Source of the DNA: Pyrinomonadaceae bacterium
GTDB lineage: Bacteria; Acidobacteriota; Blastocatellia; Pyrinomonadales; Pyrinomonadaceae
Direction: 5' to 3'
Length of the DNA stretch: 64,000 nucleotides
Assembly: GCA_022843305.1 (NCBI GenBank)
Contig: JALHNX010000003.1
Span: forward strand, 4,272-68,271
Below the pieces are notes generated by a model. It was not told the DNA's origin. It saw only the letters and a program-made list of their open reading frames with translations, and did no database searches. A program made the position numbers and the translations under genes. The number at the start of each line of letters is the position of its first letter. Position 1 is the stretch's first letter. Below are positions 2,551 to 44,513 of the stretch, one piece after another.

Positions 2551-4374
2551 TTAGCGATGTTCGAGTTGGATAAGATAAACCGCCGAATCGCCCTCGAATT
2601 CGATTTTGCTCAGTTTGTTGTCCGCGTCTTTCACAGCGGTTTTCTTTATTTTTCCGCTTTCGAGAAAATCCTTGAGCTTTTTCTCCAGTCCTTTATCAGC
2701 CAGTTTGCCGGTGTTCTGAAAAGCGTTTTCGCGCGATTTTTCCGCCGTTTCCGGTTTTTCCTTGCTCCAGACGACCCAGAAATTTTCCGTTCCGGCAGTG
2801 CCGCTGAATTCGTTCCAGCCGGTCTGATATTTCTGTTTGGCGGAAACATCCGCCGCGCCGTTGTTTTGTTTCGGAGTCGGGAAAATAATGTTGAAAACCC
2901 GTTCGCCTTTTTCGTCCAAGCCTTCGGCAAAAATATACAAAAAGCCATTTTCCGACGGAATGAGGTTCATCATAAATTGATAGCCGTTCTCGAAAATTTC
3001 CTGCCCGCTCGATTCAAAAGGCTCCTGATATTTTTTGCCGTCGCGCATTTTCTGCACGAGAAGCGAATAATCGAGATTCTTTGACGGCTGCGAAGCTGCG
3101 GTTTTCGCCGCGTTTTCGTTTGTGGTCGCGCCGCCCAACGCGCCCGAATTGGTATTCGCCGTTTCGTTTTGCTTTGAATCCGAGTTTGTTTTTTTCGTCG
3201 GATCGCCCGAAAACTTCCAAATGACACCCGCAGCAGATGCGCCGATAACAAGCAGCAAAACCGCGCCTAAACCGATCAGCGAAAACTTTTTGGTGTTTGA
3301 AGCGGGAACGCTTTCATGAGTTTGCGAAACAAAACCGGCTGACTGCTGAAACGTCGGAACAGACGGCGCGTTTTGATTTATTTCAATGATCTGCGCGGCG
3401 TTCTGCGTCGGCGGCGGCTGATAGTGAACTGCCGGATTGACGATTTCGGTTGCCTGCGTCGAGACGGAAGCCGCCTGCGAAAGTTTTAAACTCTGCCGGA
3501 ATTCCGCCGCCGTCTGAAAACGATGTTCGGGCATTACCTGCAAAGCCCGGTGAATCGCGCTTGCCAGCGCGGGCGAAACTTCCGCGTTCAGGGTTTGGAT
3601 GTTCGGCAGAGGGTCGGGTTTGTCAGACCAGAGCGCGTGAGCGCGAACCGTCGCCGTCGCCTGTTCGGGCGAAAATCCCGTCAGCAGATGATAAAGCGTC
3701 GCGCCGAGCGCGTAAATATCGCTGCGCCCGTCGGTTTTACGTTCGGCAAAATCGCGCATTTTTTCTTCATTGAGCGACATTAAAAGCAGATACGAATTCG
3801 GGTCAACCCGCAAAACCTGTTCGAGCGGCGCGTAAAAAGGCGTGTAGCCCGTAATGCTCTGTCCGCCGTAGGCAAGCGTTTTTTCCGCTTCTTCGACATT
3901 TCCTTTCGCCGTGCCGAAATCGAGCAGAAAAATTCGTCCCTTTTCGTCAATTTTGACGTTATGCGGCTTAATGTCGCGGTGATAGATCGGGAACGAATGC
4001 AGATATTCGAGCGCGTCGAGAACCTTATCGGCGATATTTAAAACATCCTGAATCTCGAATTTACGGTGTTTCATCAATCCGTGCGCCAGGTCTTCGCCCG
4101 AGATGTAATCCATCACGATAAAGCTTGCGCCCGATTCCTGAAAACAATTCGTAACCTTCGGCAGATTAGGATGGCTCAGATTATAAAGCAAGTCGGCTTC
4201 GACCTTTGAAGTCTTCGCCACCGCTTCGTTGTCCGAAAGAATTTGTTTGATGGCAACGCGGTTGTTGCCCGAAAAGCGCGTGTCTTCCGCCAGATAAACC
4301 GCGCCGAACCCGCCGCTCCCGATCTTTTCGCGGATCAGATAACGCCCGTCAATGATTTTTCCGTTTTCTAACAT
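2551..4374 (-). CDS. Hanks-type Ser/Thr protein kinase with TM helix and extracytoplasmic DUF4384-like domain
   Basis: Kinase motifs: IGSGGFGAVY (P-loop), VAIK, HRDIKPHNV, DFGTAK. TM helix FSLIGLGAVLLLVIGASAAGVIW. C-terminal NGFLYIFAEGLDEKGERVFNIIFPTP resembles DUF4384. Confidence 0.9.
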   Translation of the reverse strand: MLENGKIIDGRYLIREKIGSGGFGAVYLAEDTRFSGNNRVAIKQILSDNEAVAKTSKVEADLLYNLSHPNLPKVTNCFQESGASFIVMDYISGEDLAHGLMKHRKFEIQDVLNIADKVLDALEYLHSFPIYHRDIKPHNVKIDEKGRIFLLDFGTAKGNVEEAEKTLAYGGQSITGYTPFYAPLEQVLRVDPNSYLLLMSLNEEKMRDFAERKTDGRSDIYALGATLYHLLTGFSPEQATATVRAHALWSDKPDPLPNIQTLNAEVSPALASAIHRALQVMPEHRFQTAAEFRQSLKLSQAASVSTQATEIVNPAVHYQPPPTQNAAQIIEINQNAPSVPTFQQSAGFVSQTHESVPASNTKKFSLIGLGAVLLLVIGASAAGVIWKFSGDPTKKTNSDSKQNETANTNSGALGGATTNENAAKTAASQPSKNLDYSLLVQKMRDGKKYQEPFESSGQEIFENGYQFMMNLIPSENGFLYIFAEGLDEKGERVFNIIFPTPKQNNGAADVSAKQKYQTGWNEFSGTAGTENFWVVWSKEKPETAEKSRENAFQNTGKLADKGLEKKLKDFLESGKIKKTAVKDADNKLSKIEFEGDSAVYLIQLEHR

Positions 4375-5970: not shown

Positions 5971-7605
5971 TTACTGCCTGACAAGGCGAAAACCATAGAA
6001 ATTGGTACGATTCGATGGCGTAACTCCCCATCTTCTCCAAACAACGAAACGGGATGAAAAACTTCCACCACGAGCAACCCGTGCGTTGTAAGGCGACGAA
6101 CCCGGACCTGTCGGGTCTGTTAATATTCCGCCTGTAGTTTTGTCAAACCAATCCTGACACCATTCAATAACATTCCCGTACATATCATACACGCCCCAGG
6201 CGTTTGCCTGCTTGGTCGCCACATCATGCGTCGCTTCGCCAGAATTGTCAGAAATCCACGCTACTTTGTCAGGATTTTTCAGAACGTCCTCTTTCGTTCC
6301 GGCACGCGCCGTATATTCCCATTCCGCCTCGGTCGGCAAACGGTAAAGATAACCGTCGTTGAGCAGGTTCATCTGGTTTACAAACTCTTGCGCGTCGTCC
6401 CAACTGACACAGATTACCGGTTTGTTATCACCGACAAAATTTCCGCTCAAACTGCCGGAATCGCATTTTGACGGTAAATCGCCCATCAAAGCCTTCCACT
6501 GTGCCTGTGTCACTTCCGTGACCTGCATTTCAAAACCCCGAGTTAATCGCACTGTTACAGGCTTATCGTAAGGAGAATCATTTGATCCCATCTGAAATTC
6601 GCCCGGCTGAATATACGAAAAGCGCATCTCGATGCCGCCCGGTAAAACGATCTTGCTGATCGTGCCCGTCGGTTTGACGGGTTTTAGTTTGATTTCACTT
6701 TTCTTTTCAATTTCAGGCTGCGGCTTGACAGGGGTCTGACTGATTGGCAGTTTGTTTACTTGAGCTGTTTGTTGTTCGACTCGTAACGCAAAGTAAAAGT
6801 CCTGCAAAGTATTGCCCTCTTTCCATGGCAATTGCTGTTTGTTCGATTTTTGCCAAACCTCCGCCGAAACCGCTCGTACCATCTTGTCGTATTCGAGATT
6901 CGGCTGTTTGATTTGCTTGAGAAGAGCTTCGGTGAAAAGTCCGTTGCGCCCCGCGCCGTCGGACGCGACTTTGCCGGGTTCGGTCGCGTAGAGAACGAGC
7001 GTTCCGGTCGGCGGTGAGATTTTTGCCAAACCGTCATTGTTTGAACTGTCACGGAACGAACGCCACGAACGGGCGAACGGGTTGTTGCGGCAAGCGTCCA
7101 GAATGACGATGTTCAGATCGTTTTTCGCCGTCTGCATTTTGCCCAAAACCAGCCCGATCGGAACTGCCGAATATGAAACTTCGTCCTCTTCGGGAATATC
7201 GGCATCAACCGGCACGAGATAATTTTCGCCGTTAACCTGCAACCCGTGTCCGGCGTAATAAAAAAGTCCGACTCCGCCCGATACTGTCAACTTCGTGCCG
7301 AATTCGCGGATCAAAGTTTCCATCTGCCGCTTGTTTTGATTAACGCCCGAAATGACTTCAAAACCCAGATCGCGCAAAGTTTTCGCCATATCCGCCGCGT
7401 CGTTCGAAGGGTTCGGGAGCGGTTTCGCCTTCGTATATGCGCCGTTGCCGATAACGAGCGCGACGCGTTTCTGCGACGCTTTTTTATTGTCTTCTTCCTG
7501 CGTCAATTCACGCGTCTTTTGTGCCTTTATGCCGGACGAAGCAATCAGCAACATAAATAAGCTGCTGACAATCAATAGCTGTTGTTTGTCGAACTTAAGT
7601 TTCAT
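5971..7605 (-). CDS. Secreted caspase (peptidase C14) fused to an FGE-sulfatase (SUMF1-like) domain
   Basis: ATG at 7605 gives the signal peptide MKLKFDKQQLLIVSSLFMLLIASSGIKAQ. Caspase His/Cys: YYAGHGLQ and ILDACRNNP. FGE-like: YRLPTEAEWEYTARAG, WGVYDMYGNVIEWCQDW, GGSF, YGFRLVRQ. The track N-terminal extension to 7833 overlaps the upstream gene and is rejected. Confidence 0.85.
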   Translation of the reverse strand: MKLKFDKQQLLIVSSLFMLLIASSGIKAQKTRELTQEEDNKKASQKRVALVIGNGAYTKAKPLPNPSNDAADMAKTLRDLGFEVISGVNQNKRQMETLIREFGTKLTVSGGVGLFYYAGHGLQVNGENYLVPVDADIPEEDEVSYSAVPIGLVLGKMQTAKNDLNIVILDACRNNPFARSWRSFRDSSNNDGLAKISPPTGTLVLYATEPGKVASDGAGRNGLFTEALLKQIKQPNLEYDKMVRAVSAEVWQKSNKQQLPWKEGNTLQDFYFALRVEQQTAQVNKLPISQTPVKPQPEIEKKSEIKLKPVKPTGTISKIVLPGGIEMRFSYIQPGEFQMGSNDSPYDKPVTVRLTRGFEMQVTEVTQAQWKALMGDLPSKCDSGSLSGNFVGDNKPVICVSWDDAQEFVNQMNLLNDGYLYRLPTEAEWEYTARAGTKEDVLKNPDKVAWISDNSGEATHDVATKQANAWGVYDMYGNVIEWCQDWFDKTTGGILTDPTGPGSSPYNARVARGGSFSSRFVVWRRWGVTPSNRTNFYGFRLVRQ

Positions 7606-7628
7606 AATCGCCTCTATTTTACTGCGTT

Positions 7629-8918
7629 TTACTTTGATGTAAAGGCAAGCGTCAGATTCGCGCTCGAACCGGGCAGAGCGCGGGGATTTTGTGCAAAATT
7701 CGTCGCCTTTTGCACCGCGCCCTGCGTGTATTGAAACAATTCGCCCGCCGTGATCAGATTGTCGCCGTTCATATCCGCCTTGCCTTTCAAACCGTCGAGC
7801 AATGCCCACGTAAAAACGCCGTGATTGCCCCATTTGGCGGATTCCTGCGAAACCTCGTTGACATCCGACGAAGTTATAATCGCGCGTCCCGTCTGTTTGA
7901 AAAGCTGATTGGTCAGATAAAAATTCGAGATGTTGTTTTCGTCGTCTTCCTGCACCAAATCTCTGCCCGAGACAAGTGATTTTGTTTTCTGATTTATCCC
8001 TGCGCTGTGGCAGGTGTCAATCAGAGTGATAACGCGTTGGGCGTAAATCTGCGTGTCGAGAATCTGTTTCAGCTCGCTCATCGGAAACGCGGTTTTCGGC
8101 ATATCCACGACCTTTGTATCCGAAAGCAGAAAATAAAGATTCTGCGGCGCGATCGGATCGGGCGCACCGTGTCCGGCGATAAATATAAAAACCAGATCAT
8201 CCGTCTTGGCGCGTTTCGCGGTTTCCGCCAGAGCCGCGCGCACGGCAACCAAGGAAGCGTCGCCGTTGACAAGCAGTTTAACGTCGCCCGCCGCGAAACT
8301 TCCGCCCGCCGGAGTTTTCAGAAAAGCGGCTATCGCCTGCGCGTCGTCGTCGGCAAAGTTCAGATTTTTGAGTCCTGCGTCGTTATATTTATATTCGGAA
8401 ACGCCGATAATGACGGCAAATTTGCGTCCGCGAAAGATTTCAGCCTTGCCGCCCGCGCCGCCCGCTTTTTCGATAACGGCGTTTTTATCGCCCAAAATCA
8501 ACAGATATGAAGCGTAATATTCGCGTCCCGTTTTTTTATCGGTCGCGCGGATTTCGATGACGTTTCTTCCGGGAAGAAGTTCGTACCCGAACGGACGGTC
8601 TTCGCGTCTGCCGCAATGCACGATTTTCCCCTGCGCGTCGAGCTTTTTATCGCACCCGCGATTAATGCCGCTGCCGTTCAAAGTAACGATGATTTTTCCG
8701 TAATCAATATCGGCGGCAAACGGTTCGAGGACGCGGAATTTCAGCGTCGGAACCGTCTTTGAAGGCAGACGAATAATCGGCGCAGTATAACGCGTCGCGG
8801 AAACTTCTGGAATTTCCAGAACAAACGGCGCGCGCGAAGAAAAACTCGTTTGTGCCGAAACTGTGGTTGTCAAAAAAACCAGTAAAAACAGGCTGTTTTG
8901 TAGAATTTGAGATCTCAT
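7629..8918 (-). CDS. Secreted caspase-family (peptidase C14) protein with an N-terminal beta-rich domain
   Basis: Signal peptide MRSQILQNSLFLLVFLTTTVSAQ. Caspase block FAVIIGVSEYKY, catalytic FIFIAGHGAPD and LIDTCHSAG. Confidence 0.85.
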   Translation of the reverse strand: MRSQILQNSLFLLVFLTTTVSAQTSFSSRAPFVLEIPEVSATRYTAPIIRLPSKTVPTLKFRVLEPFAADIDYGKIIVTLNGSGINRGCDKKLDAQGKIVHCGRREDRPFGYELLPGRNVIEIRATDKKTGREYYASYLLILGDKNAVIEKAGGAGGKAEIFRGRKFAVIIGVSEYKYNDAGLKNLNFADDDAQAIAAFLKTPAGGSFAAGDVKLLVNGDASLVAVRAALAETAKRAKTDDLVFIFIAGHGAPDPIAPQNLYFLLSDTKVVDMPKTAFPMSELKQILDTQIYAQRVITLIDTCHSAGINQKTKSLVSGRDLVQEDDENNISNFYLTNQLFKQTGRAIITSSDVNEVSQESAKWGNHGVFTWALLDGLKGKADMNGDNLITAGELFQYTQGAVQKATNFAQNPRALPGSSANLTLAFTSK

Positions 8919-15332: not shown

Positions 15333-17219
15333 ATGAGCAAAAAAATCATCGAAAGCTACCGGCAGAAACTTACGAACGAGGAAGGCTACGTCATCAAACA
15401 CGGCGCACGGCTTCGCATCGCATTGTGCTATCCGAACACGCACTCGATTGGAATGGCAAACCTCGGAATGCACACGATGTATGAGCTTTTCAACAAAATT
15501 CCCGAAGTTTCCTGCGAGCGGGTTTTTCTGCCGGATGATGCGGAAATGCGCGAATATGAAAAATCGCGCACACCGCTTTTATCTCTGGAAACACAAAAGC
15601 CGATTCGTGATTTTGATGTCGTCGCCTTTTCGATTTCGTTTGAAACCGATTATCTGAATATGGCGAAAATGCTGCAAATGTCGCAAATTCCGGTTTGGGC
15701 AAAAGACCGCAATCATTTTCACCCGCTTGTCGTGATGGGCGGCGCGGCTTCGTTCCTCAATCCCGAACCGATTGCCGATTTTACAGACATTATCGCCGTC
15801 GGCGAAGGCGAAATTCTCGCATTTCAATTAGTTGACGCGATTCTCGAACATAGCAATAAAGAAGATATTTTATTAAATCTCGCTCGCATCGGACGCGGAT
15901 TTTATATTCCTTCGTTTTACGATGTCGTGTATAACGACGACGGTACGGTTTTCGATTATCTGCCGAAAGAAAAAGGCGTTCCGAAGCGCGTCGGACGTGC
16001 GCTGGCGGCGGTTAATCCGAAAGAAGGAACGCTTCGTCGGGCGATCAAACGCGGCGAAAAGGAATTAGCCGATTTTCTCGTTAATCAGGATATTTTCTGC
16101 CCTTCGACAAGCGTTTGGTCACCCGGCGCGGAAATGGGCGACCGTCTTTTAGTCGAGATTTCGCGCGGTTGTTCGCAGGGCTGTCGTTTCTGCTGGGCGG
16201 GCTACAATTATTACCCGCCGCGCGTCGTTCCGGCGAAAGACATTCTGGCAAAAGCGCGTGAATGGCGCGATAAAACCGACAAGATCGGTCTGGTTTCAAC
16301 CGCCGTCTGCGATCATCCCGAAATTTCGACGATTTTGAGCGAACTCCGAAAAATGGAATATCGCATCACGGTTTCGTCGCTGCGGCTCGATCAGATTTCC
16401 GATGAACTGCTCGACGCGTTGGTCGAATCGAACGACCAGCAAATCGCGGTCGCGCCCGAAACCGGTTCGGACAGATTACGGCGAGTAATCAATAAAAATC
16501 TGACGAACGACGAAATCGTTGACATCTGCGGCGCGGTTTTCGACCGCGGAATGCTGACCGTCAAACTTTATATGATGGTCGGACTGCCGACCGAAACGCA
16601 GGAAGATTTAGACGAAATGTTTGTTCTCGTCGAGCGCATTAAAAATAGAATGCTCGAAGCCGGAAAGAAATTCGGTCGTGCCGGAAAAATAATTCCCTCG
16701 CTCAACGGCTTTGTGCCGAAACCGAATACGCCTCTGCAATGGGACGGAATCTGCGACGAGAAGGAATTGAAACAAAAAATAAAATACGTCTGCAAAGGAC
16801 TTTCACGGATTCCGAACGTCGAAGTTCGTTTTATGTCTGCCAAAATCGCGCACGAACAAGCCCTTTTTTCGTCGGGCGACCGAACCGTCGCCAAAGTCAT
16901 CGAAGCAGCGGCGCGAAACGGCAATAATATCAGAGAAACCTTGCGGCAAATGAATTTCGACGATTCATTCCATATCTCGCGTAACCGCAGTTACGACGAA
17001 TTTCTGCCGTGGTCAATCGTTGATTCGGGGCTTTCGTTTGAATTCCTGAAAACCGAAAACGAAAAAGCGCACGAAGCACTTTCCTCAAAGCCGTGTCCGG
17101 CGGTCGAGAAATGCACGACGTGCGGTGTTTGTCCGACAACCTGGCTGGCTGACGCGCCGACCAATCTGATACAAATTCATCACCTAAAAGTTCAGCAAAA
17201 CTTAGCTGCCGGTGTTTGA
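15333..17219 (+). CDS. B12-binding-domain radical SAM protein
   Basis: The N-terminal Rossmann-like region (RIALCYPN...VVAFSISF) precedes EISRGCSQGCRFCWAG (CxxxCxxC). Confidence 0.9.
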   Translation: MSKKIIESYRQKLTNEEGYVIKHGARLRIALCYPNTHSIGMANLGMHTMYELFNKIPEVSCERVFLPDDAEMREYEKSRTPLLSLETQKPIRDFDVVAFSISFETDYLNMAKMLQMSQIPVWAKDRNHFHPLVVMGGAASFLNPEPIADFTDIIAVGEGEILAFQLVDAILEHSNKEDILLNLARIGRGFYIPSFYDVVYNDDGTVFDYLPKEKGVPKRVGRALAAVNPKEGTLRRAIKRGEKELADFLVNQDIFCPSTSVWSPGAEMGDRLLVEISRGCSQGCRFCWAGYNYYPPRVVPAKDILAKAREWRDKTDKIGLVSTAVCDHPEISTILSELRKMEYRITVSSLRLDQISDELLDALVESNDQQIAVAPETGSDRLRRVINKNLTNDEIVDICGAVFDRGMLTVKLYMMVGLPTETQEDLDEMFVLVERIKNRMLEAGKKFGRAGKIIPSLNGFVPKPNTPLQWDGICDEKELKQKIKYVCKGLSRIPNVEVRFMSAKIAHEQALFSSGDRTVAKVIEAAARNGNNIRETLRQMNFDDSFHISRNRSYDEFLPWSIVDSGLSFEFLKTENEKAHEALSSKPCPAVEKCTTCGVCPTTWLADAPTNLIQIHHLKVQQNLAAGV

Positions 17220-31540: not shown

Positions 31541-32785
31541 ATGAACAAACTCTCAAAAATTTATACATTCGACGATTTTCAGTTTGATACCGACCGTCTC
31601 GCCCTTTATCACCGCACTAATCTGGTCAAAAACAGCGATAAAAAAACGATGCAGGTGTTGGCGGTTTTATTGCTTAATCCGAACAGATTAACGACGCACG
31701 AAGAGATTATCGAAAAGGTTTGGCAGGATAATCCGCTCGGTGTAACTTCCGGGCATATCGGGCAATACATCAGCCGGCTGCGAAAGATTTTTGCCGAACT
31801 CGCGCCTGAAAAACAATTTATCGAAACGGTCAAAGGACGCGGTTATTCATTTAAGGGCAATATATTTTTAGATGACGCGCAAATTGAAGAGAGTGTTGAA
31901 ACCGCGTTGCCGACTGACGCGGCAAATATTCCCGAATCCGTCCAAATTAGCGGAGAAAAATCCGCTTTGCGTTTCAACCTTCGTCAAGCGACAATCGCTT
32001 TTTCGCTTTTGATCTTGGCTTTACTGACGATTTTCGCGGCTTGGACGCGGTTTGCCAAAAATGATGAAGAAGAAATACGGCGCGTGGTTAAAGAGTCGCA
32101 ATTATACGAGTCGTTGGTGTTATACAAAAATCCGGCAATGTTCGATGAAACGCAGCTGGATAAATATTGGATGGCGGAACTCGACCATACTCTGAACGCC
32201 GACCGCCGCCGCATCCGCGAAGCCGTCAAAAAACTCGACAACGAAGGCAGGCGATACGGCGATGAAACACGATGCGAACAGTTCGAGTTTCAATCTGTCG
32301 AAATCAATCAAAACCGCGATTTTGCCGTTGTCAAAACTCTGGAAAAATGGTTTATTGCCGTCTATTTCAACGATGGAACTCTGCAAAGAAATAAATATGT
32401 CGGTCCTTATTTTGTCAGTTATCTCGTCCGCAAATCGAACGGACGCTGGTTGATTGAAAAATCGAATACGGCGCGGGTTAATCGTCCGATACCGCGGCTG
32501 TCCGGCATCGAAACTCTTTCCGAAATCAAGCCGGAACAGCAGTTTTTCGTTAAACTGAACGGACAGGATTTTGAAGCGGAAACCGTTCACATCGAGATTT
32601 TCGGCGAAGGCTGCCCGGAAAGCAACCCGTGCCGAATTTCAAATATAACCTTGCGGGAAAATTCAAAAATCTCGGAAACATTTTTAGAGAATGTTCCGCT
32701 CACGTTGTCGTCCGGCATTTTCAGAATTACCGTTCGCAACGGCGATTCGCGGGGATCGAATTCGGTTGATCTGGAAGTTCCGTAA
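31541..32785 (+). CDS. CadC/ToxR-like membrane-bound transcriptional regulator (N-terminal OmpR-type winged helix)
   Basis: FDDFQFDTDRLALY...MQVLAVLLLNPNRLTTHEEIIEKVW...YISRLRKIF...ETVKGRGYSF, then the TM helix IAFSLLILALLTIFAAW and an extracytoplasmic domain. Confidence 0.8.
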   Translation: MNKLSKIYTFDDFQFDTDRLALYHRTNLVKNSDKKTMQVLAVLLLNPNRLTTHEEIIEKVWQDNPLGVTSGHIGQYISRLRKIFAELAPEKQFIETVKGRGYSFKGNIFLDDAQIEESVETALPTDAANIPESVQISGEKSALRFNLRQATIAFSLLILALLTIFAAWTRFAKNDEEEIRRVVKESQLYESLVLYKNPAMFDETQLDKYWMAELDHTLNADRRRIREAVKKLDNEGRRYGDETRCEQFEFQSVEINQNRDFAVVKTLEKWFIAVYFNDGTLQRNKYVGPYFVSYLVRKSNGRWLIEKSNTARVNRPIPRLSGIETLSEIKPEQQFFVKLNGQDFEAETVHIEIFGEGCPESNPCRISNITLRENSKISETFLENVPLTLSSGIFRITVRNGDSRGSNSVDLEVP

Positions 32786-38344: not shown

Positions 38345-39115
38345 ATGAGATTTATCGTTTTCGTTTCGCTCGTTTTATTCAGCGTTTTCAGCGTTTTCGG
38401 ACAAATCAAAAAACCGATTCCGCCGAAACCGTCCGTTCCCTATGCAAAATCTTTGCAGGCGGTTGTCGTGACGACCAAAGACTGGTCGGCGCTGCAGGGC
38501 AAAGCACAGCTTTTCGAGCGCAAATCCACAAAATCGAAATGGAAAGCGGTCGGCGAATCTTTTGCAATCGTCGTCGGCAAAAACGGATTGGCGTGGGGCG
38601 CGGGACTCAACGAACTGCCTTCGGATACGGGCAGACTTTTGATGAAAACCGAAGGCGACGGCAAAGCCCCGGCGGGAATTTTTTCTTTGACGGAAAGTTT
38701 CGGCACGAAGGAAAAACCCGATTTTATCAAACTTCCCTTTCTGCGGCTCGGTGAATATACCGAATGCGTGGACGACGTAAAATCAACACATTACAACCGG
38801 ATCGTTGACCGGATGAAGGTCGGCATTTTCGATTGGAACAGCTCGGAAAAAATGCTCGCCGTCGGCGCGGAATACGATCTCGGCATCACGGTCGCGCATA
38901 ATACGAATCCCGTGAACGCGGGCGGCGGTTCGTGCATTTTTCTGCATATCTGGAAAACGGCGGAAAATGGCACGGCGGGCTGCACGGCGATGGCGCGCGA
39001 AAATCTGGAAACGATCCTGAAATGGGCTGAGGCGACGAAAAATCCCGTTTTGATTCAGCTTCCCGAAGATTCCTACCAACAATTTCAAACAACGTGGAAA
39101 CTACCGAAACTCTAA
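38345..39115 (+). CDS. Secreted L,D-transpeptidase-fold (YkuD/YafK-like) protein
   Basis: Signal [41 protein letters not shown] resembles the H...G-x-G-C catalytic motif. Confidence 0.7.
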
Positions 39116-39366
39116 TCACACTGCGCGAACTGCCGATCGGTGCGCGGCTTTTGGTGCGCTCGAAAACCGACTGGCGGAGCGCCGTCATTGCGCGGTTCGA
39201 TCCGGAAAAAGCCGTTCTCTCGGTTTGTTCTCCTTCAGGCAGAACTTATCGCCTGCGCCGCGCTCTGGAAGCCGAATTGATCTTCGACGGCGGAATTCCG
39301 GTTCTCAAGATCGATGCGGACGAAAACTGGCGCGAAAATTTCACAAAATACGATTTTCGCTGGTGA
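39094..39366 (+). CDS. Hypothetical 90-aa protein
   Basis: GTG-start ORF overlapping the previous gene end by 22 nt. Ordinary amino-acid composition. No family recognised. Confidence 0.4.
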
Positions 39367-39423
39367 TTGGCAAAATTGATTTTTGGTATCATGTTAAGTT
39401 AGCTTATAAATTGGCTCAAAAAC

Positions 39424-40293
39424 ATGGCGCAAGATCTTTCGGCGGAAAACAAAAAAATCAAACAAATCTCAAACAGAATCAGAAAAAGTGATTTCAAATA
39501 TCATTTTCACATCGAATCTTTCGGCGTAAAAATCGGTTTTTCGACAAATTCGGTGGAAGCTCTCGAAGCCGTCAAACAAGCCGTCGGAATTTATCTTCCC
39601 GATTGTTTCAAGGAAATTGAAAAGACCGAAACCGAACATAATTTTTTATTCGTCTGGAACAAAAGCGAACGCGACTCGCTTTATAAAAACGGCGAGCGGA
39701 TTTTCAGCCGCGAACGGCGCGAAACTTCGGTTGAAAGCGCGGCTTCGCGGATTCGCCTGACGGTTGCCGAATTTGCCGCCAAACGCGTTTTTATTCACGC
39801 GGGCGTCATCGCAAGGAAAGGTAAAGCGGTCATAATTCCGGGCAGAAGTTTTTATGGAAAAACGGCTTTGACCGTCGCACTGGTCAAACGCGGCGCGATT
39901 TATTATTCGGACGAATACGCGATTTTGGACGCCGAGGGTTTTCTGCACCCGTTTCCGAAAATGCTTTCGGTGCGCGGCGAAATTGACGATCATAAACAAA
40001 TTGACTATCCGGTCGAAAAATTCGGCGGCACGGCGGGAACCGAGAAAATACCTGTCGGAATGGTGTTGATTACCCAGTACAAAGCAAGAGCGCGGTGGAA
40101 TCCGAAGATTTTAAGCCCGGCGAACGGCGTGATTGAAATGCTTCAGCATACGATTCCGATTCGGCAAAACCCGCAATTCACACTTGAAGTCATCAATAAA
40201 ATCGCGAAAGAATCCGTTTTTGTAAAATCGAAACGCGGCGATGTTTCAAAAATCGCTGACTTGGTTCTGCATTTTATTGATAATAATCTTTAA
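39424..40293 (+). CDS. HPr-kinase-related (HprK-like) P-loop kinase
   Basis: VFIHAGVIARKGKAVIIPGRSFYGKTALTVALVKRGAIYYSDEYAILD shows a Walker-A-like GxxxxGKT in the context typical of HprK C-terminal-like kinases. Family assignment is from memory. Confidence 0.65.
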   Translation: MAQDLSAENKKIKQISNRIRKSDFKYHFHIESFGVKIGFSTNSVEALEAVKQAVGIYLPDCFKEIEKTETEHNFLFVWNKSERDSLYKNGERIFSRERRETSVESAASRIRLTVAEFAAKRVFIHAGVIARKGKAVIIPGRSFYGKTALTVALVKRGAIYYSDEYAILDAEGFLHPFPKMLSVRGEIDDHKQIDYPVEKFGGTAGTEKIPVGMVLITQYKARARWNPKILSPANGVIEMLQHTIPIRQNPQFTLEVINKIAKESVFVKSKRGDVSKIADLVLHFIDNNL

Positions 40294-40479
40294 CTTTTTT
40301 TCAGTCCCCAAAATATATTTATCTTAATATAGATTGAAGTTAAGGTTAAAATTGCTTTTTATTACAATGGTATTAAAAAATAAAAAACTTGATCGAGGAT
40401 TCGCACTAAATAATTTTTACGAAAACCCGACCAAGTTTTTTTGTTCGATTCTTAAACCGATAAATTTCTAATTAGAACA

Positions 40480-41034
40480 TTAAGGTACGCAATTACCGCT
40501 GCCTGCCCCGCCACTATTATTAGCCTTAAAACACCGGCAATTCGCATTGGCACACGGCGTTGTCACATTAGTGCATAATTGACCATTTGGACCGCTTCCA
40601 GCAGCACAAGCGCAACCGCCTGTTACAGGAATGCAGGTGCTCGCGGATTGTGCCGCAACCGGTGCGGTCAAAGAAGCAATCACAGGTAGTGCAATTAACG
40701 ATGCAAGTCCAACTTTTCTAACAGCTTCACGGCGCGACATACCGGCAAATTTATTTTTAATTTCTTCTTTGTTTTCAACCAATTTTTCTTTGCTTAACTG
40801 ATCGAGCGCCAGCCAAACAATGTCTTCATTGATCTGTGAGTTGAGTTGTTTGCCGACGACTTCGCTGATTTCCGCAATCGTTCGGCTGCCGTCGCAGGAT
40901 TGCCAAACCAGAGCCGATGTCTGATTTAAACAAAATGCTTTATTTTTTTCTAAATCGTATATTAACACTTCACCTTCAAGCTCTTGCACGACAAGGTTTT
41001 CCTTGCGGCTTTTCGGTGTAAAATCATTATTCAT
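40480..41034 (-). CDS. Tripartite protein: PqqD-like domain, internal twin-arginine-type signal or TM segment, and a 54-aa 8-Cys tail
   Basis: ATG at 41034 (MNNDFTPK). LVVQELEGEVLIYDLEKNKAFCLNQTSALVWQSCDGSRTIAEISEVV is PqqD-like. It is followed by MSRREAVRKVGLASLIALPVIASLTAPVAAQSA and then STCIPVTGGCACAAGSGPNGQLCTNVTTPCANANCRCFKANNSGGAGSGNCVP. Confidence 0.75.
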   Translation of the reverse strand: MNNDFTPKSRKENLVVQELEGEVLIYDLEKNKAFCLNQTSALVWQSCDGSRTIAEISEVVGKQLNSQINEDIVWLALDQLSKEKLVENKEEIKNKFAGMSRREAVRKVGLASLIALPVIASLTAPVAAQSASTCIPVTGGCACAAGSGPNGQLCTNVTTPCANANCRCFKANNSGGAGSGNCVP

Positions 41035-41060
41035 TTTTATTCTTTCCTCAAATGTTCCAT

Positions 41061-41112
41061 TAGGAACCAATCAATACAGTTTAGTGTAGGAACCAATTAA
41101 TACAGTTTAGTG
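41061..41112. promoter_or_regulatory. Tandem 26-bp direct repeat immediately upstream of the PqqD-fusion gene
   Basis: TAGGAACCAATCAATACAGTTTAGTG (41061-41086) is followed directly by TAGGAACCAATTAATACAGTTTAGTG (41087-41112), with 1 mismatch. It begins 27 nt upstream of the ATG. Confidence 0.6.
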
Positions 41113-41204
41113 AGAGTTCTCTTTTATCTAATCTATGATTAATCAATAGCAAGCGAAAGTCAATAGTTTTCTGTTTTGTTCTGCTTTTGAAAAACTTATT
41201 TATT

Positions 41205-41480
41205 TTATCTGAGTTCGCCGTATAAGAAGTAAACGATCAGCGGAACGCCGATTATATAAGCGATCAGCGCAAGTCGGTATAACTTTTGTCCGATCGGAGT
41301 CATATCGGTAAATCCGTTGGTCGCCCCGAAAAGAATATTGCCGATGCCGGTGAAAAAAAATCCGACGGCGTATAAACGCCCGGATGAATTTAGCGCGAGC
41401 CAGACGGCGAAAATTATCAGTGCCAGCCCGATGAGGATCATCACAATCGAATTAAAAGTCGGTTGAAAAGGTAAATTCAT
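41205..41480 (-). CDS. Small three-TM membrane protein, hypothetical
   Basis: ATG at 41480. Hydrophobic helices IVMILIGLALIIFAVWLAL, YAVGFFFTGIGNILFGA and LALIAYIIGVPLIVYFL. Confidence 0.55.
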   Translation of the reverse strand: MNLPFQPTFNSIVMILIGLALIIFAVWLALNSSGRLYAVGFFFTGIGNILFGATNGFTDMTPIGQKLYRLALIAYIIGVPLIVYFLYGELR

Positions 41481-41681
41481 TTTCAGCGACAAATTTTAAT
41501 TCAAATAGCTTTGCGAAACAAGTTTACATTATAAAAAAAACAGGCATCAAACAACGATTTGGTTAAATTAATTGGAAACTTCCGGGTTTTTAGTTCCGCA
41601 ACCCGATTTGCCGCTACCCTTTTTACTTTTCGCTTGATTTGGTAAAATTAAATTTTGCTCAAACGACAGAATTTTTCATCT

Positions 41682-44513
41682 ATGCAAGCAGTAAAGTCAA
41701 AAGAAGAATCAATCGAAGTTCGCGGAGCGCGGGTTCACAATCTGAAGAACATCTCGTTTCGCCTTCCGCTCAATAAATTAACAGTCGTCACGGGCGTTTC
41801 CGGTTCGGGAAAATCATCTCTCGCGTTCGATACGATTTACGCCGAAGGGCAAAGAAGATACGTCGAATCGCTTTCGGCATATGCGCGGCAGTTTCTTGAA
41901 CGAATGGACAAACCCGACGTTGACGAGATTTTGGGAATCGCGCCGGCAATTGCGATTCGACAAAAAAATTCGACGCGCAATCCGCGCTCGACCGTCGCCA
42001 CACAAACCGAAATTTACGATTATCTGCGCCTGCTTTTTGCGCGTGTCGGGCAGACGTTTTGTTATGTCTGCTCGCGGGAAGTAAAAAAGGATTCGCCCGA
42101 ATCGGCGGCTGACGAAATTCTTGAAAATCTGGCGGAAGGAACGCGGTTTTACGTCCTTTTTCCCGCCGAACACGATTTTGAAATCAAACCCCAAAAGACC
42201 AAAACCAAAGACCAAAACCCGATTCCGCATCTGATGAGCCTGATGCAGCAAGGTTTTACGCGACTTTTCCGCGACGGCAAAACGATCGAACTTCAAAAAC
42301 CCGAAGATTATCCGTTTAAGGATTTTGAAAACACGTTCGTGATGATTGACCGCCTGAAAGCCGACAAATCAATTCGTCAAAGATTAGTTGATTCGCTCGA
42401 AATCTGTTTCCGCGAAAGCGGCGCGGGCGTGATTAAAACGGCAGAACCGTCTGCGGTAGCGGATGGTTTACGCGTCGGAACATTCAACTTTTCGGAAAAA
42501 TTTATCTGCAAATACGACGGCACGCTTTACGAAGAACCCGAACCGCGTCTTTTCAGTTTTAATTCGCCGTTCGGGGCGTGTCCGCTTTGTCAGGGTTTCG
42601 GCAACACGATTGACATTGATTTCGAGTTGGTTGTGCCGAACGCGAATCTTTCCATCGAAGACGACGCGGTCGAGCCTTTTTCGCGCCCGCAATACGATTG
42701 GGCGAAAAAGGAACTTTTGCGATTTGCGCGAAACGAAGGAATTGACACGAAAATTCCTTTTGCCGATTTAGCGGGCGAAGAAAAACGCGTAATTTTTGAA
42801 GGCAAGCGCGGTTGGCGCGGTGTGCGCGGATTTTTCAACTGGCTCGAAACGAAAAAATACAAACTCCACGTCCGCGTTTTTATGGCAAAATATCGCGGCT
42901 ACACGACTTGCCCGGAATGCAAAAGCGGAAGATTGCGGAAGGAAGCGCAAGCCGTGCGGGTCGGCGGAAAATCGTTGCCCGAAGTCGTTAATTTTGCGAT
43001 CAACGACGCGCAAAACTTTTTTGATACGCTGGAATTATCCGAAGAACGCGAAAAGATTGCCGAAAAACTTCTTTTGGAAGTCCGCCGCCGTTTGAAATTT
43101 CTGGTTGATGTCGGGTTGGATTATTTAACGCTAAACCGGCTTGCTTCAACGCTGTCGGGCGGCGAAGCACAGCGCATTCAACTGGCGACAAACCTCGGTT
43201 CGCTGCTCGTCGGCGCACTTTACGTTTTGGACGAACCTTCAATCGGACTTCATCCGCGAGACAATTCAAGATTGGTAAAAATTCTCGAAAACCTGCGCGA
43301 CATCGGCAACACGGTGCTGGTTGTCGAACACGACGAAGAAATGATGCGCTCGGCTGACCATATTCTCGACATCGGGCTTTACGCGGGCGAACTCGGCGGA
43401 AATCTGGTTTACGAAGGCGATTTTGTCGGGCTGATTCAGGACGATATTTCGCTGACTGCCAAATATTTGCGCGGTGATCTGGAAATCAAAGTTCCGCAGA
43501 AACGAAAAGAGCCGACCAAGCAAAAAATCGAAATCAAAGGCGCGCGCGAAAACAATCTGAAAAACATTTCGGTCGAAATTCCGCTCGATATGTTGGTTTG
43601 CGTAACCGGCGTTTCGGGTAGTGGAAAATCAACGCTCGTGCATGACATTCTTTACGCCGGAATCAAGAAACAACGCGGCGAATGGCAGGGTCAGGTCGGA
43701 CATTTCAAGGAAATCAAAGGCGCGGAGCTGGTTGACGACATCATTCTGGTTGACCAATCGCCGATTGGCAGAACGCCGCGCTCGAATCCCGTGACATACA
43801 TCAAGGCTTACGATGCGATCCGCGAAGTTCTCGCTTCGACCAACGCTTCAAAAGCAAAAGGCTTTAACGCTTCGCATTTTTCGTTCAACGTTCCGGGCGG
43901 ACGCTGCGAAACCTGTCAGGGAAGCGGAACGGTAACGGTCGAAATGCAGTTTTTGGCGGACATCGAACTGACCTGCGAAGACTGTCGCGGAACGCGTTTC
44001 CGCGACGAAATCCTCGATGTCAAATACAAGGGCAAAAACATCGCCGAAGTTTTGCAGTTGACCGTCCGTGAAGCGATTTTGTTTTTCAAGGAAACCGCAA
44101 AATTAGTCAATAAATTAAAAGTCATTGAAGCCGTCGGACTCGGTTATTTAAGATTAGGACAATCGGCAACGACACTTTCGGGCGGCGAAGCGCAGCGCGT
44201 CAAATTGGCGGCGCATTTAGCGACGAAAACAAAATCGAAAACGCTTTTTATCTTTGACGAACCGACAACCGGCTTGCATTTCGACGACATCAACAAACTG
44301 CTGACCGCGTTTCGCGCATTGATCGAAAACGGCGGAAGTCTGCTCGTCATCGAACACAATCCGGACGTCATAAAAACCGCCGATTACGTCATTGATCTCG
44401 GACCCGAAGGCGGCACAGGCGGCGGCGAAATCGTCGCCACGGGAACGCCTGAAGAAATTGTCAAAGTAGAAAATTCGCACACCGGACAATACTTAATGGA
44501 ATATTTGAATTAG
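41682..44513 (+). CDS. uvrA: Excinuclease ABC subunit A
   Basis: ATG at 41682. [14 protein letters not shown], two Walker A motifs ([12 protein letters not shown] and [11 protein letters not shown]), ABC signatures LSGGEAQR (twice), and zinc-finger Cys pairs. Confidence 0.97.

Follow-up and report, generated by a model that had tools for sequence, protein, structure and literature searches.

A family of acidobacterial proteins with an RRE domain, an internal twin-arginine-type segment and a Cys-rich tail, encoded beside an HprK-like kinase

Two convergent genes in a Pyrinomonadaceae genome

We analyzed a stretch of 64,000 nucleotides (nt), hereafter the window, from a Pyrinomonadaceae bacterium (GenBank assembly GCA_022843305.1, contig JALHNX010000003.1, positions 4,272 to 68,271), in which two convergent genes 186 nt apart code for a three-part fusion protein and for a kinase. 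The fusion protein joins a PqqD-like RRE domain (recognition element of RiPPs, peptides that are made on the ribosome and modified after translation), a segment resembling a twin-arginine translocation (Tat) signal and a Cys-rich tail. Both open reading frames (ORFs) were confirmed, and their features are listed below in window coordinates.

40480..41034, minus strand: fusion coding sequence, 184 amino acids (aa) plus stop, with RRE domain, Tat-like signal and Cys-rich tail
40774..41007, minus strand: PqqD/RRE domain, residues 10-87, acidic (isoelectric point, pI, 4.7), predicted to be cytoplasmic
40645..40749, minus strand: twin-arginine-type signal or anchor, residues 96-130, with F-x-G-M-S-R-R-E-A-V-R-K, a 17-residue hydrophobic region (h-region) and an A-x-A-type c-region
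40483..40644, minus strand: hypervariable Gly/Asn/Ala/Thr-rich tail, residues 131-184, with exactly 8 Cys, predicted to be extracytoplasmic and disulfide-bonded
39424..40293, plus strand: kinase coding sequence, HprK/PEPCK-fold P-loop kinase of 289 aa
39841..39864, plus strand: P-loop of the kinase, G140-RSFYGKT147, aligning to BsfK G163-RSGAGKS170

The start of the fusion gene was placed at ATG 41034, which has a GAGG Shine-Dalgarno sequence upstream and corresponds to the residue at which the homologues begin. The start at TTG 41070 found in a database entry was rejected.

The initial annotation of this DNA had read the fusion protein as a PqqD/RRE fold, an internally placed twin-arginine signal and a Gly/Ala/Asn-rich tail with 8 Cys, and its convergent neighbor as an HprK-like kinase. 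These assignments held: both proteins matched the proposed families and folds, the two genes co-occurred in varied arrangements, and the Cys-rich tail was kept throughout the family.

The fusion architecture was found in 601 proteins (90% clusters). An exhaustive profile search over 50% identity clusters returned 1,137 clusters at E<=1e-30 and 4,497 at E<=1e-10; the best 150 were 155-247 aa long, and nearly all of them began to match the profile within their first residues and continued up to position 150 or beyond, i.e., over the RRE domain and the signal. All named sources were Acidobacteriota, mostly Pyrinomonadaceae and other Blastocatellia. The RRE domain and the signal had mean pairwise identities of 72% and 66%, the linker and the tail of 32% and 30% (21% for the tail when Cys residues were left out). 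Similarly, tandem copies of the fusion gene, found in loci L003, L010, L018, L031, L078 and L082, encoded paralogues that were 50-80% identical in the N-terminal part and 22-48% identical in the tail. A conserved leader, a hypervariable core, paralogues and adjacent candidate modifying enzymes together make up the pattern of RiPP precursors.

Parts of the fusion protein and the kinase

With regard to the N-terminal domain, the Pfam model PqqD (PF05402) matched residues 22-64 with 30.6 bits (cut-off 23.4, E=4e-7) and is annotated on nearly all fusion homologues. The NCBIfam model lasso_PqqD_Bac aligned end to end with residues 10-87 at a score below its cut-off, the best NCBIfam match of the domain was ScmD, and TIGR04353 gave no match at E<=1. 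An AlphaFold2 model of the fusion protein, built on 65 homologues, had a predicted local distance difference test (pLDDT) value of 78.8 overall and 85-93 in the RRE domain (residues 14-82), which showed the order beta-beta-beta-alpha-alpha-alpha (strands 14-19, 22-27 and 32-36; helices 38-46, 53-64 and 70-82). In a Foldseek search the closest structures were leader-bound lasso B1 proteins, i.e., TbiB1 (5v1u/5v1v) and 6jx3, with target TM-scores of 0.70-0.75 and root-mean-square deviations of 2.4-3.0 Å, and the next matches were mostly RiPP RREs as well (TruD, ThcOx, PqqD, CteB and SkfB). Besides, the domain was 31% identical to BsfB1, an experimentally characterized lasso RRE (E=2e-10). Its most conserved positions were located in beta3 (A33, C35, L36, N37) and alpha3 (D71, W74, A76, L80), the positions that form the leader-binding groove of RREs.

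A winged helix, a transmembrane segment and a periplasmic Cys domain are also the layout of ToxR/CadC-like membrane-tethered regulators, and a palindrome is located upstream of the fusion gene. The N-terminal domain might accordingly bind DNA, or a sigma factor as in an anti-sigma-like factor, while the Cys domain senses redox. We regard this explanation as highly improbable. OmpR/PhoB-type domains are basic, whereas this domain is acidic, with 17 Asp/Glu against 12 Lys/Arg; Trans_reg_C was not among the Pfam matches of the fusion protein, and nearly all top fold matches were RiPP RREs with no DNA-binding winged helix among them. In addition, no sigma factor was found among the conserved neighbors, and a 26-bp repeat upstream of the gene was not conserved.

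In the second part of the protein, residues 99-130 read M-SRREAVRKVGLASLIALPVIASLTAPVAAQS. When each position relative to the twin arginines (RR) was tabulated in 348 unique family sequences, RR was present in 100% of them and no insertion or deletion was found from RR-5 to RR+31. The family consensus was F(-5) G(-3) [ST](-1) R R [ED] [VA] [IV] [KR] [KR] [VI] G, with S/T in 85% of sequences at -1, V/A/I at +3, I/V/L at +4 and K/R at +5 and +6. Two prolines of the h-region segment, Pro117 and Pro125 (family positions +16 and +24), were near-invariant. Behind the 17-residue hydrophobic stretch came A/V/I at +27 and A at +29, and the first Cys followed at +32 or +33. The segment resembles Tat signals in its [ST]-R-R-x-hydrophobic-hydrophobic-K motif, its moderately hydrophobic h-region, a Pro at -6 and an A-x-A that agrees with the (-3,-1) rule of signal peptidase I, and a weak match to the NCBIfam model 'formate_TAT' was also obtained. 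Judged by these features, cleavage in the window protein would likely occur after A128 or S130. In contrast to Tat signals, which are N-terminal, the RR (residues 101-102 in the window) was located behind a folded RRE domain of 95 residues, in all homologues likewise behind the RRE, and no cofactor-type passenger followed.

The initial annotation had also offered an internal start at ATG 40738-40740 (Met99), giving an 86-aa Tat prepeptide. One gene would then yield two products, the other being a PqqD domain that is either separate or part of a longer isoform. Met99 does directly precede S-R-R in the window; however, the corresponding residue was Met in only 23 of 86 homologues, the others having Leu (28), Gln (20), Thr, Glu and further residues. 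The Leu codons included TTA (9), CTT (7) and CTC (2), which cannot initiate translation, and the linker and reading frame were continuous in all homologues. We therefore dropped the internal start as very improbable.

The main rival explanation of the conserved segment is that it is never cleaved. The fusion protein would then be a permanent type II single-pass membrane protein held by an RR signal-anchor, its RRE would recruit the kinase or a peptide to the membrane, and the disulfide-containing ectodomain would serve as a sensor, a receptor or a surface knob, while the kinase and the nucleotidyltransferase found beside it in relatives (see below) have other targets, such as components of the envelope or of polysaccharides. 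This is an unlikely but serious alternative. The hydrophobic segment is strongly conserved and free of insertions and deletions, and its recurring small residues (G+8, S+11, A+14, S+20 and A+23 in the 348-sequence profile) look like a helix-packing face. On the other hand, the h-region has only about 17 residues and two near-invariant prolines, the A-x-A at (-3,-1) and the Pro at -6 keep a fixed distance family-wide, and in its evolution and duplication the tail resembles a secreted product and not a sensor.

Within the family, the tails ranged from about 22 to 115 residues and contained 6 to 26 Cys. Of 120 homologues, 119 had an even number of Cys (p=2e-34), as had 87 of 90 and 136 of 143 sequences. 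This observation argues for disulfides, and hence for a location of the tail outside the cytoplasm. The AlphaFold2 model showed beta-strands in the tail of the window protein (pLDDT about 82-85). No Pfam family was found in a scan of 8 diverse tails, which gave only insignificant knottin/conotoxin noise. Tails with 16 Cys and a repeated CxCNxN...CC...C pattern were seen in L029 (1034-1693) and L042 (9953-10663), and C...C...CC...C spacing of the inhibitor cystine knot (knottin) type in L010 (8908-9426) and L051. The tails of the family may fall into several structural classes.

The convergent gene codes for a kinase without a signal sequence, which is therefore cytoplasmic. The NCBIfam model HprK_rel_A (TIGR04352) matched it with E=1e-13 over residues 113-184 only, at 51.1 bits against a cut-off of 200; its relatives scored 30-65 bits, one relative of the type found in locus L150 reaching E=4e-18. 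There were weak matches to HprK_rel_B, hpr-ser, Hpr_kinase_C and ScmC, and the kinase scored well below the models of HPr(Ser) kinase/phosphorylase proper (17.4 bits vs 240 for TIGR00679 and 14.7 vs 33.3 for PF07475). A Pfam scan of 40 kinases of the family gave no family, profile searches of the fusion and kinase families against PDB sequences gave nothing significant, and a search with the L150-type kinase returned only Pyrinomonadaceae matches and no protein named 'HprK-related kinase A'. The AlphaFold2 model (pLDDT 86.4, predicted TM-score 0.81) had the PEPCK/HprK/P fold, with ATP-PEPCK (E=6e-5) and the HprK/P structures 1kkl, 2qmh and 3tqf (E about 5e-4) as Foldseek matches. H125, G145-K146-T147 and S162-D163-E164 were invariant in the kinase family, so that the catalytic residues are intact. 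H125, K146 and D163-E164 aligned to H148, K169 (in G168-K169-S170) and D186-D187 of BsfK, and the family profile matched the BsfK core with an hhalign probability of 90.6%. The P-loop and catalytic motif of BsfK have been validated by mutagenesis (PMC10368454).

Gene neighborhoods and related systems

Linkage of the two genes was counted in those species-level genome loci that extended 1.5 kb or more to each side of the fusion gene, 49 in all. The kinase gene was found within 1.5 kb in 38 of these loci, located upstream on the same strand (24 cases), downstream on the same strand (9), convergently as in the window (7) or divergently (1). A third gene, coding for an NTP_transf_5 nucleotidyltransferase (PF14907, E=2e-15), was nearby in 32 loci; 30 loci had both kinase and NTP_transf_5, and 42 had at least one partner. 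The reciprocal test, starting from the kinase in metagenome loci, gave a fusion gene within about 200 nt in about 34 of about 47 informative loci, usually 10-70 nt away and mostly downstream on the same strand, with six convergent cases. The commonest context was epimerase, GT1, GT4 (WecA-like), kinase, fusion, NTP_transf_5, TsaB and RimI, and in most relatives NTP_transf_5 completed an operon of kinase, fusion and NTP_transf_5. The window itself contained no homologue of NTP_transf_5, of the methyltransferase or of the 419-aa protein described below.

This context bears on the uncleaved anchor as well, for which a polysaccharide function was considered: the epimerase, GT1 and WecA-like GT4 genes of the commonest context form a polysaccharide locus directly upstream of the kinase, and the kinase and NTP_transf_5 pair also occurs without the fusion gene. 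A sister group of this kind was seen in Pyrinomonadaceae with a tetratricopeptide repeat protein 5' of the kinase (L150 6025-8288, L157 5974-7964 and P0241-P0360).

It should also be considered whether the kinase has any meaning for the fusion protein at all. The fusion could be a Cys-rich protein, exported or anchored, whose RRE is vestigial and whose gene lies beside the kinase and NTP_transf_5 genes of Blastocatellia by chance. The loci all come from one bacterial class, and shared ancestry inflates co-occurrence; 11 of the 49 fusion loci had no kinase nearby, and the same-synteny variants L056, L061 and L068 had NTP_transf_5 and no kinase. However, the linkage holds in at least four gene orders and in two chromosomal contexts that are unrelated, the fusion gene sits precisely between kinase and NTP_transf_5 with gaps of 10-70 nt, the groove positions of the supposedly vestigial RRE are the most conserved of the whole protein, and the RRE and the kinase have homologues whose cooperation has been shown. 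We thus consider chance adjacency improbable.

Accessory genes beside the module varied between loci. A 341-aa methyltransferase was encoded between or beside fusion and kinase in L001 (8622-9647, minus strand), L003, L005, L015, L016, L023, L024, L031, L089 and L160. More than 10 loci had it embedded in the module, and it gave PrmA and protein-methyltransferase-like matches and a weak PRMT5 match; this PrmA-like protein may be a further tailoring enzyme. A 419-aa protein adjoined fusion copies in L031 (1761-3020, plus strand), L018 (2340-3605) and L053 (2508-3752). It had no Pfam or NCBIfam match, but an HxD...H pattern that recalls the Fe(II)/2-oxoglutarate oxygenases.

In the window, the gene order is UvrA, a small membrane protein and fusion, then convergently (with a methyltransferase in some relatives at this place) the kinase, a 90-aa protein, YkuD, M50B and MoaC. 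UvrA, the small membrane protein (tm95), the 90-aa protein (p90), YkuD, M50B and MoaC were rejected as members of the module; this housekeeping synteny persists without the kinase and is absent from the commonest context. In L001 (6669-7487) and L006 (8655-9473) a secreted, thioredoxin-like DUF1223 protein with a CxxC motif was encoded between UvrA and the small membrane protein, a place where the window has no such gene. Elsewhere in the window, 8 kb from the module, a 414-aa protein (31541-32785, plus strand) with an OmpR/PhoB-type winged helix (Trans_reg_C, residues 34-104) and a long uncharacterized C-terminal part could be a ToxR/CadC-style regulator. A Peptidase_C14 caspase and FGE-sulfatase fusion was encoded beside another gene with a caspase domain, and downstream of them followed genes for a DUF4384 protein and a Ser/Thr protein kinase (5971-7833, 7629-8918 and 2551-4374, all minus strand); these genes are unrelated to the module.

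Four further features were found around the two genes.

40382..40441, unstranded: inverted repeat between the convergent genes, with 22-nt arms, a 16-nt loop and runs of A and T on its flanks
41135..41163, minus strand: promoter-like site of the fusion gene, TTGACT-17-AATCAT, with TTGAC invariant in 8 syntenic loci
41055..41066, minus strand: TTCC-N4-GGAA palindrome just 5' of the fusion Shine-Dalgarno sequence, kept in several syntenic loci
41061..41112, unstranded: tandem 26-bp duplication in the fusion 5' leader, 96% identity with one C/T mismatch

The inverted repeat is likely a shared terminator of both genes. A simple terminator scan missed this hairpin, whose loop is longer than 8 nt, and an Rfam scan of 39000-41700 gave one insignificant miRNA match that overlapped it. 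The palindrome, which was seen at equivalent positions in L001, L006, L007 and L014, might serve as a small operator or form a hairpin in the RNA. The 26-bp duplication was specific to the window: it was absent from seven syntenic relatives and is therefore recent and private to the lineage of the window, and for the same reason it was rejected as an operator.

The system most similar to this module is the kinase-containing type of lasso peptide cluster. As the initial annotation had pointed out, such kinases accompany PqqD/RRE proteins in these clusters (PMC9266682, PMC10368454). The HPr-kinase homologues PadeK, ThcoK, SyanK and PsmK phosphorylate the linear precursor peptide, and in the case of pseudomycoidin the phosphorylation by PsmK is followed by addition of a hexose to the phosphate by the nucleotidyltransferase homologue PsmN (PMC9266682). 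In the Bsf cluster, which has the nucleotidyltransferase BsfN, the RRE BsfB1 strongly accelerates phosphorylation of Ser3 of the precursor core by BsfK (PMC10368454). The window resembles the trio BsfB1/BsfK/BsfN in having a homologous RRE and a homologous kinase core (H...GxxxxGK[ST]...D[DE]), and most relatives resemble it further in having a PF14907 nucleotidyltransferase as the third partner. In contrast to this trio, the module is without a B2 protease, a C cyclase, an ABC exporter and a separate short precursor; its RRE is fused to the Tat-like signal and Cys-rich domain, unlike lasso B1; its tails do not end in Ser; and its predicted product is a disulfide-rich mini-protein, whereas the lasso product is a lariat. 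In agreement with the initial annotation, no lasso cyclase, leader protease (B2) or YcaO was found among the larger ORFs of the window that were scanned, and the only radical SAM gene of the window (15333-17219) was of the Radical_SAM_N2 type and 22 kb away. The conserved neighbors up to 6 kb away, examined in 84 loci, likewise included no B2 peptidase and no C cyclase.

HprK-related kinase A (TIGR04352) and the SynChlorMet pair ScmC/ScmD are like the module in that an HprK-like protein is paired with a PqqD-like one; the curated cut-offs were missed in both comparisons (51-65 vs 200 bits and 21.9 vs 100 bits), with matches in the P-loop core only. The HPr-rel-A cassette is, we take it, made up of HprK-related kinase A and a PqqD-family partner. 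The module would function like lasso B1/kinase/nucleotidyltransferase, HprK-related kinase A and ScmC/ScmD, yet it is a member of none of them, because the curated cut-offs were widely missed and the defining lasso enzymes are absent.

Two other kinds of systems may be compared. The logic of proofreading chaperones such as TorD, DmsD and NapD is likewise that a domain which binds peptides goes together with a Tat signal. TorD- and NapD-fold chaperones are separate proteins, whereas the putative binder in our case is an RRE fused in cis. The NHLP and Nif11 families are long-leader RiPP precursors derived from proteins. The fusion family is like them in its conserved leader of about 100-130 residues from a folded family, its short hypervariable Cys-rich core and its tandem paralogues, and differs from them in that the leader consists of an RRE and an export signal, and the neighborhood of the fusion gene has neither a lanthipeptide synthetase nor a cyclodehydratase nor a C39 peptidase-transporter. 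To our knowledge, RREs occur either as discrete proteins or fused to enzymes. In the curated models and literature searched we found no counterpart of an internal Tat-type signal or of an RRE fused to a substrate, and no description of this system was found in that literature.

A proposed maturation route and its implications

The fusion protein is probably a conserved N-in, C-out protein in which the RRE domain, the Tat-like segment and a disulfide-containing domain follow one another and which works with the HprK-like kinase. More specifically, and tentatively, with a probability of about 0.4, we propose that it is a self-contained RiPP-like precursor whose RRE would present its own C-terminal part to the kinase, after which Tat-like export and signal peptidase would release the product. 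The order of events would be docking and modification in the cytoplasm, Tat-type export, cleavage and disulfide formation.

In the first step, the cytoplasmic RRE would present a peptide segment of its own chain to the kinase, in the manner of lasso B1 proteins and their kinases. Since RRE and kinase are homologous to the cooperating BsfB1 and BsfK, such presentation of a peptide is the parsimonious assumption. The presented peptide would be the rest of the same chain because the operon, with its gaps of 10-70 nt, has no room for a separate precursor gene. The presented segment would likely be the conserved signal region with its hydrophobic-x-x-Pro-x-hydrophobic pattern, which spans -17 to -12 relative to the site where cleavage is predicted. 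In the second step, the kinase would modify the chain before export, and in relatives NTP_transf_5, the methyltransferase or the 419-aa protein may likewise modify it. A candidate modification site is the conserved Ser/Thr two residues past the predicted cleavage site (core position +2, 85% Ser/Thr). By eye, Ser at RR+31 was retained in seven kinase-less loci too, an observation that is uninformative on kinase dependence. In the third step, the S-R-R-E-V-I-K-K segment would act as an internal Tat-type signal, and the small hydrophilic C-terminal part would cross the membrane post-translationally. This route is favored over co-translational insertion because a cytoplasmic kinase would reach the tail only before export. 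Signal peptidase I would then cut behind A-x-A, near residues 128-130, and the peptide freed into the periplasm or beyond would have about 54-56 aa and four disulfides.

Several points weigh against this proposal. We know of no ordinary Tat substrate that has its signal behind a 95-residue folded domain. The h-region is conserved far above usual signal peptides and could equally be a permanent transmembrane helix packing against a partner. A search of the window for the TatA motif found none and no Tat gene was seen, which refers to a motif search only. The tails of the fusion proteins do not end in Ser, the site of PadeK, ThcoK and PsmK, and no phospho-acceptor was identified. Seven of the 49 fusion loci had no partner gene nearby. 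Besides, a sister group of at least 7,630 kinases has the order kinase, NTP_transf_5, TsaB and RimI without a fusion gene between; given this much larger group, the kinase and NTP_transf_5 pair must be older and must have, or have had, another substrate. Finally, when positions are counted from the predicted cleavage site, Pro(+16) falls at -14 and has I/V at -17 and -12, the same register as in the lasso leader motif Y(-17)xxP(-14)xL(-12) bound by B1 proteins; this match is a lead and not a demonstration, weak as evidence since the neighboring positions are hydrophobic anyway.

An extended form of the proposed route, which is speculative and which we consider quite unlikely, makes the RRE a built-in export gatekeeper. 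It would bind and shield its own signal motif and present the first core residues to the kinase, and to the nucleotidyltransferase, methyltransferase and oxygenase-like enzymes where these are present, and release to Tat would follow only after modification. The outcome would be a very large and hitherto unseen class of knottin-like peptides from soil Acidobacteriota, rich in disulfides, exported, and decorated with phosphate or in other ways.

If the gatekeeper idea were true, this would be the first recognition element fused to its own substrate. If the RRE is, as it looks, joined to its own substrate and to an export signal, the family has a new precursor architecture, missed by current genome-mining rules that look for short precursors beside class-defining enzymes. 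It would also provide a natural internal Tat-type signal after a soluble domain, which bears on how Tat substrates are recognized and threaded. In addition, it would offer a handle on the orphan pairing of HprK-related kinases with PF14907 nucleotidyltransferases beyond lasso peptides. With regard to the organisms, it would open up thousands of hypervariable mini-proteins with 6 to 26 Cys from abundant, hard-to-culture soil Acidobacteriota, which could be toxins, inhibitors or signals.

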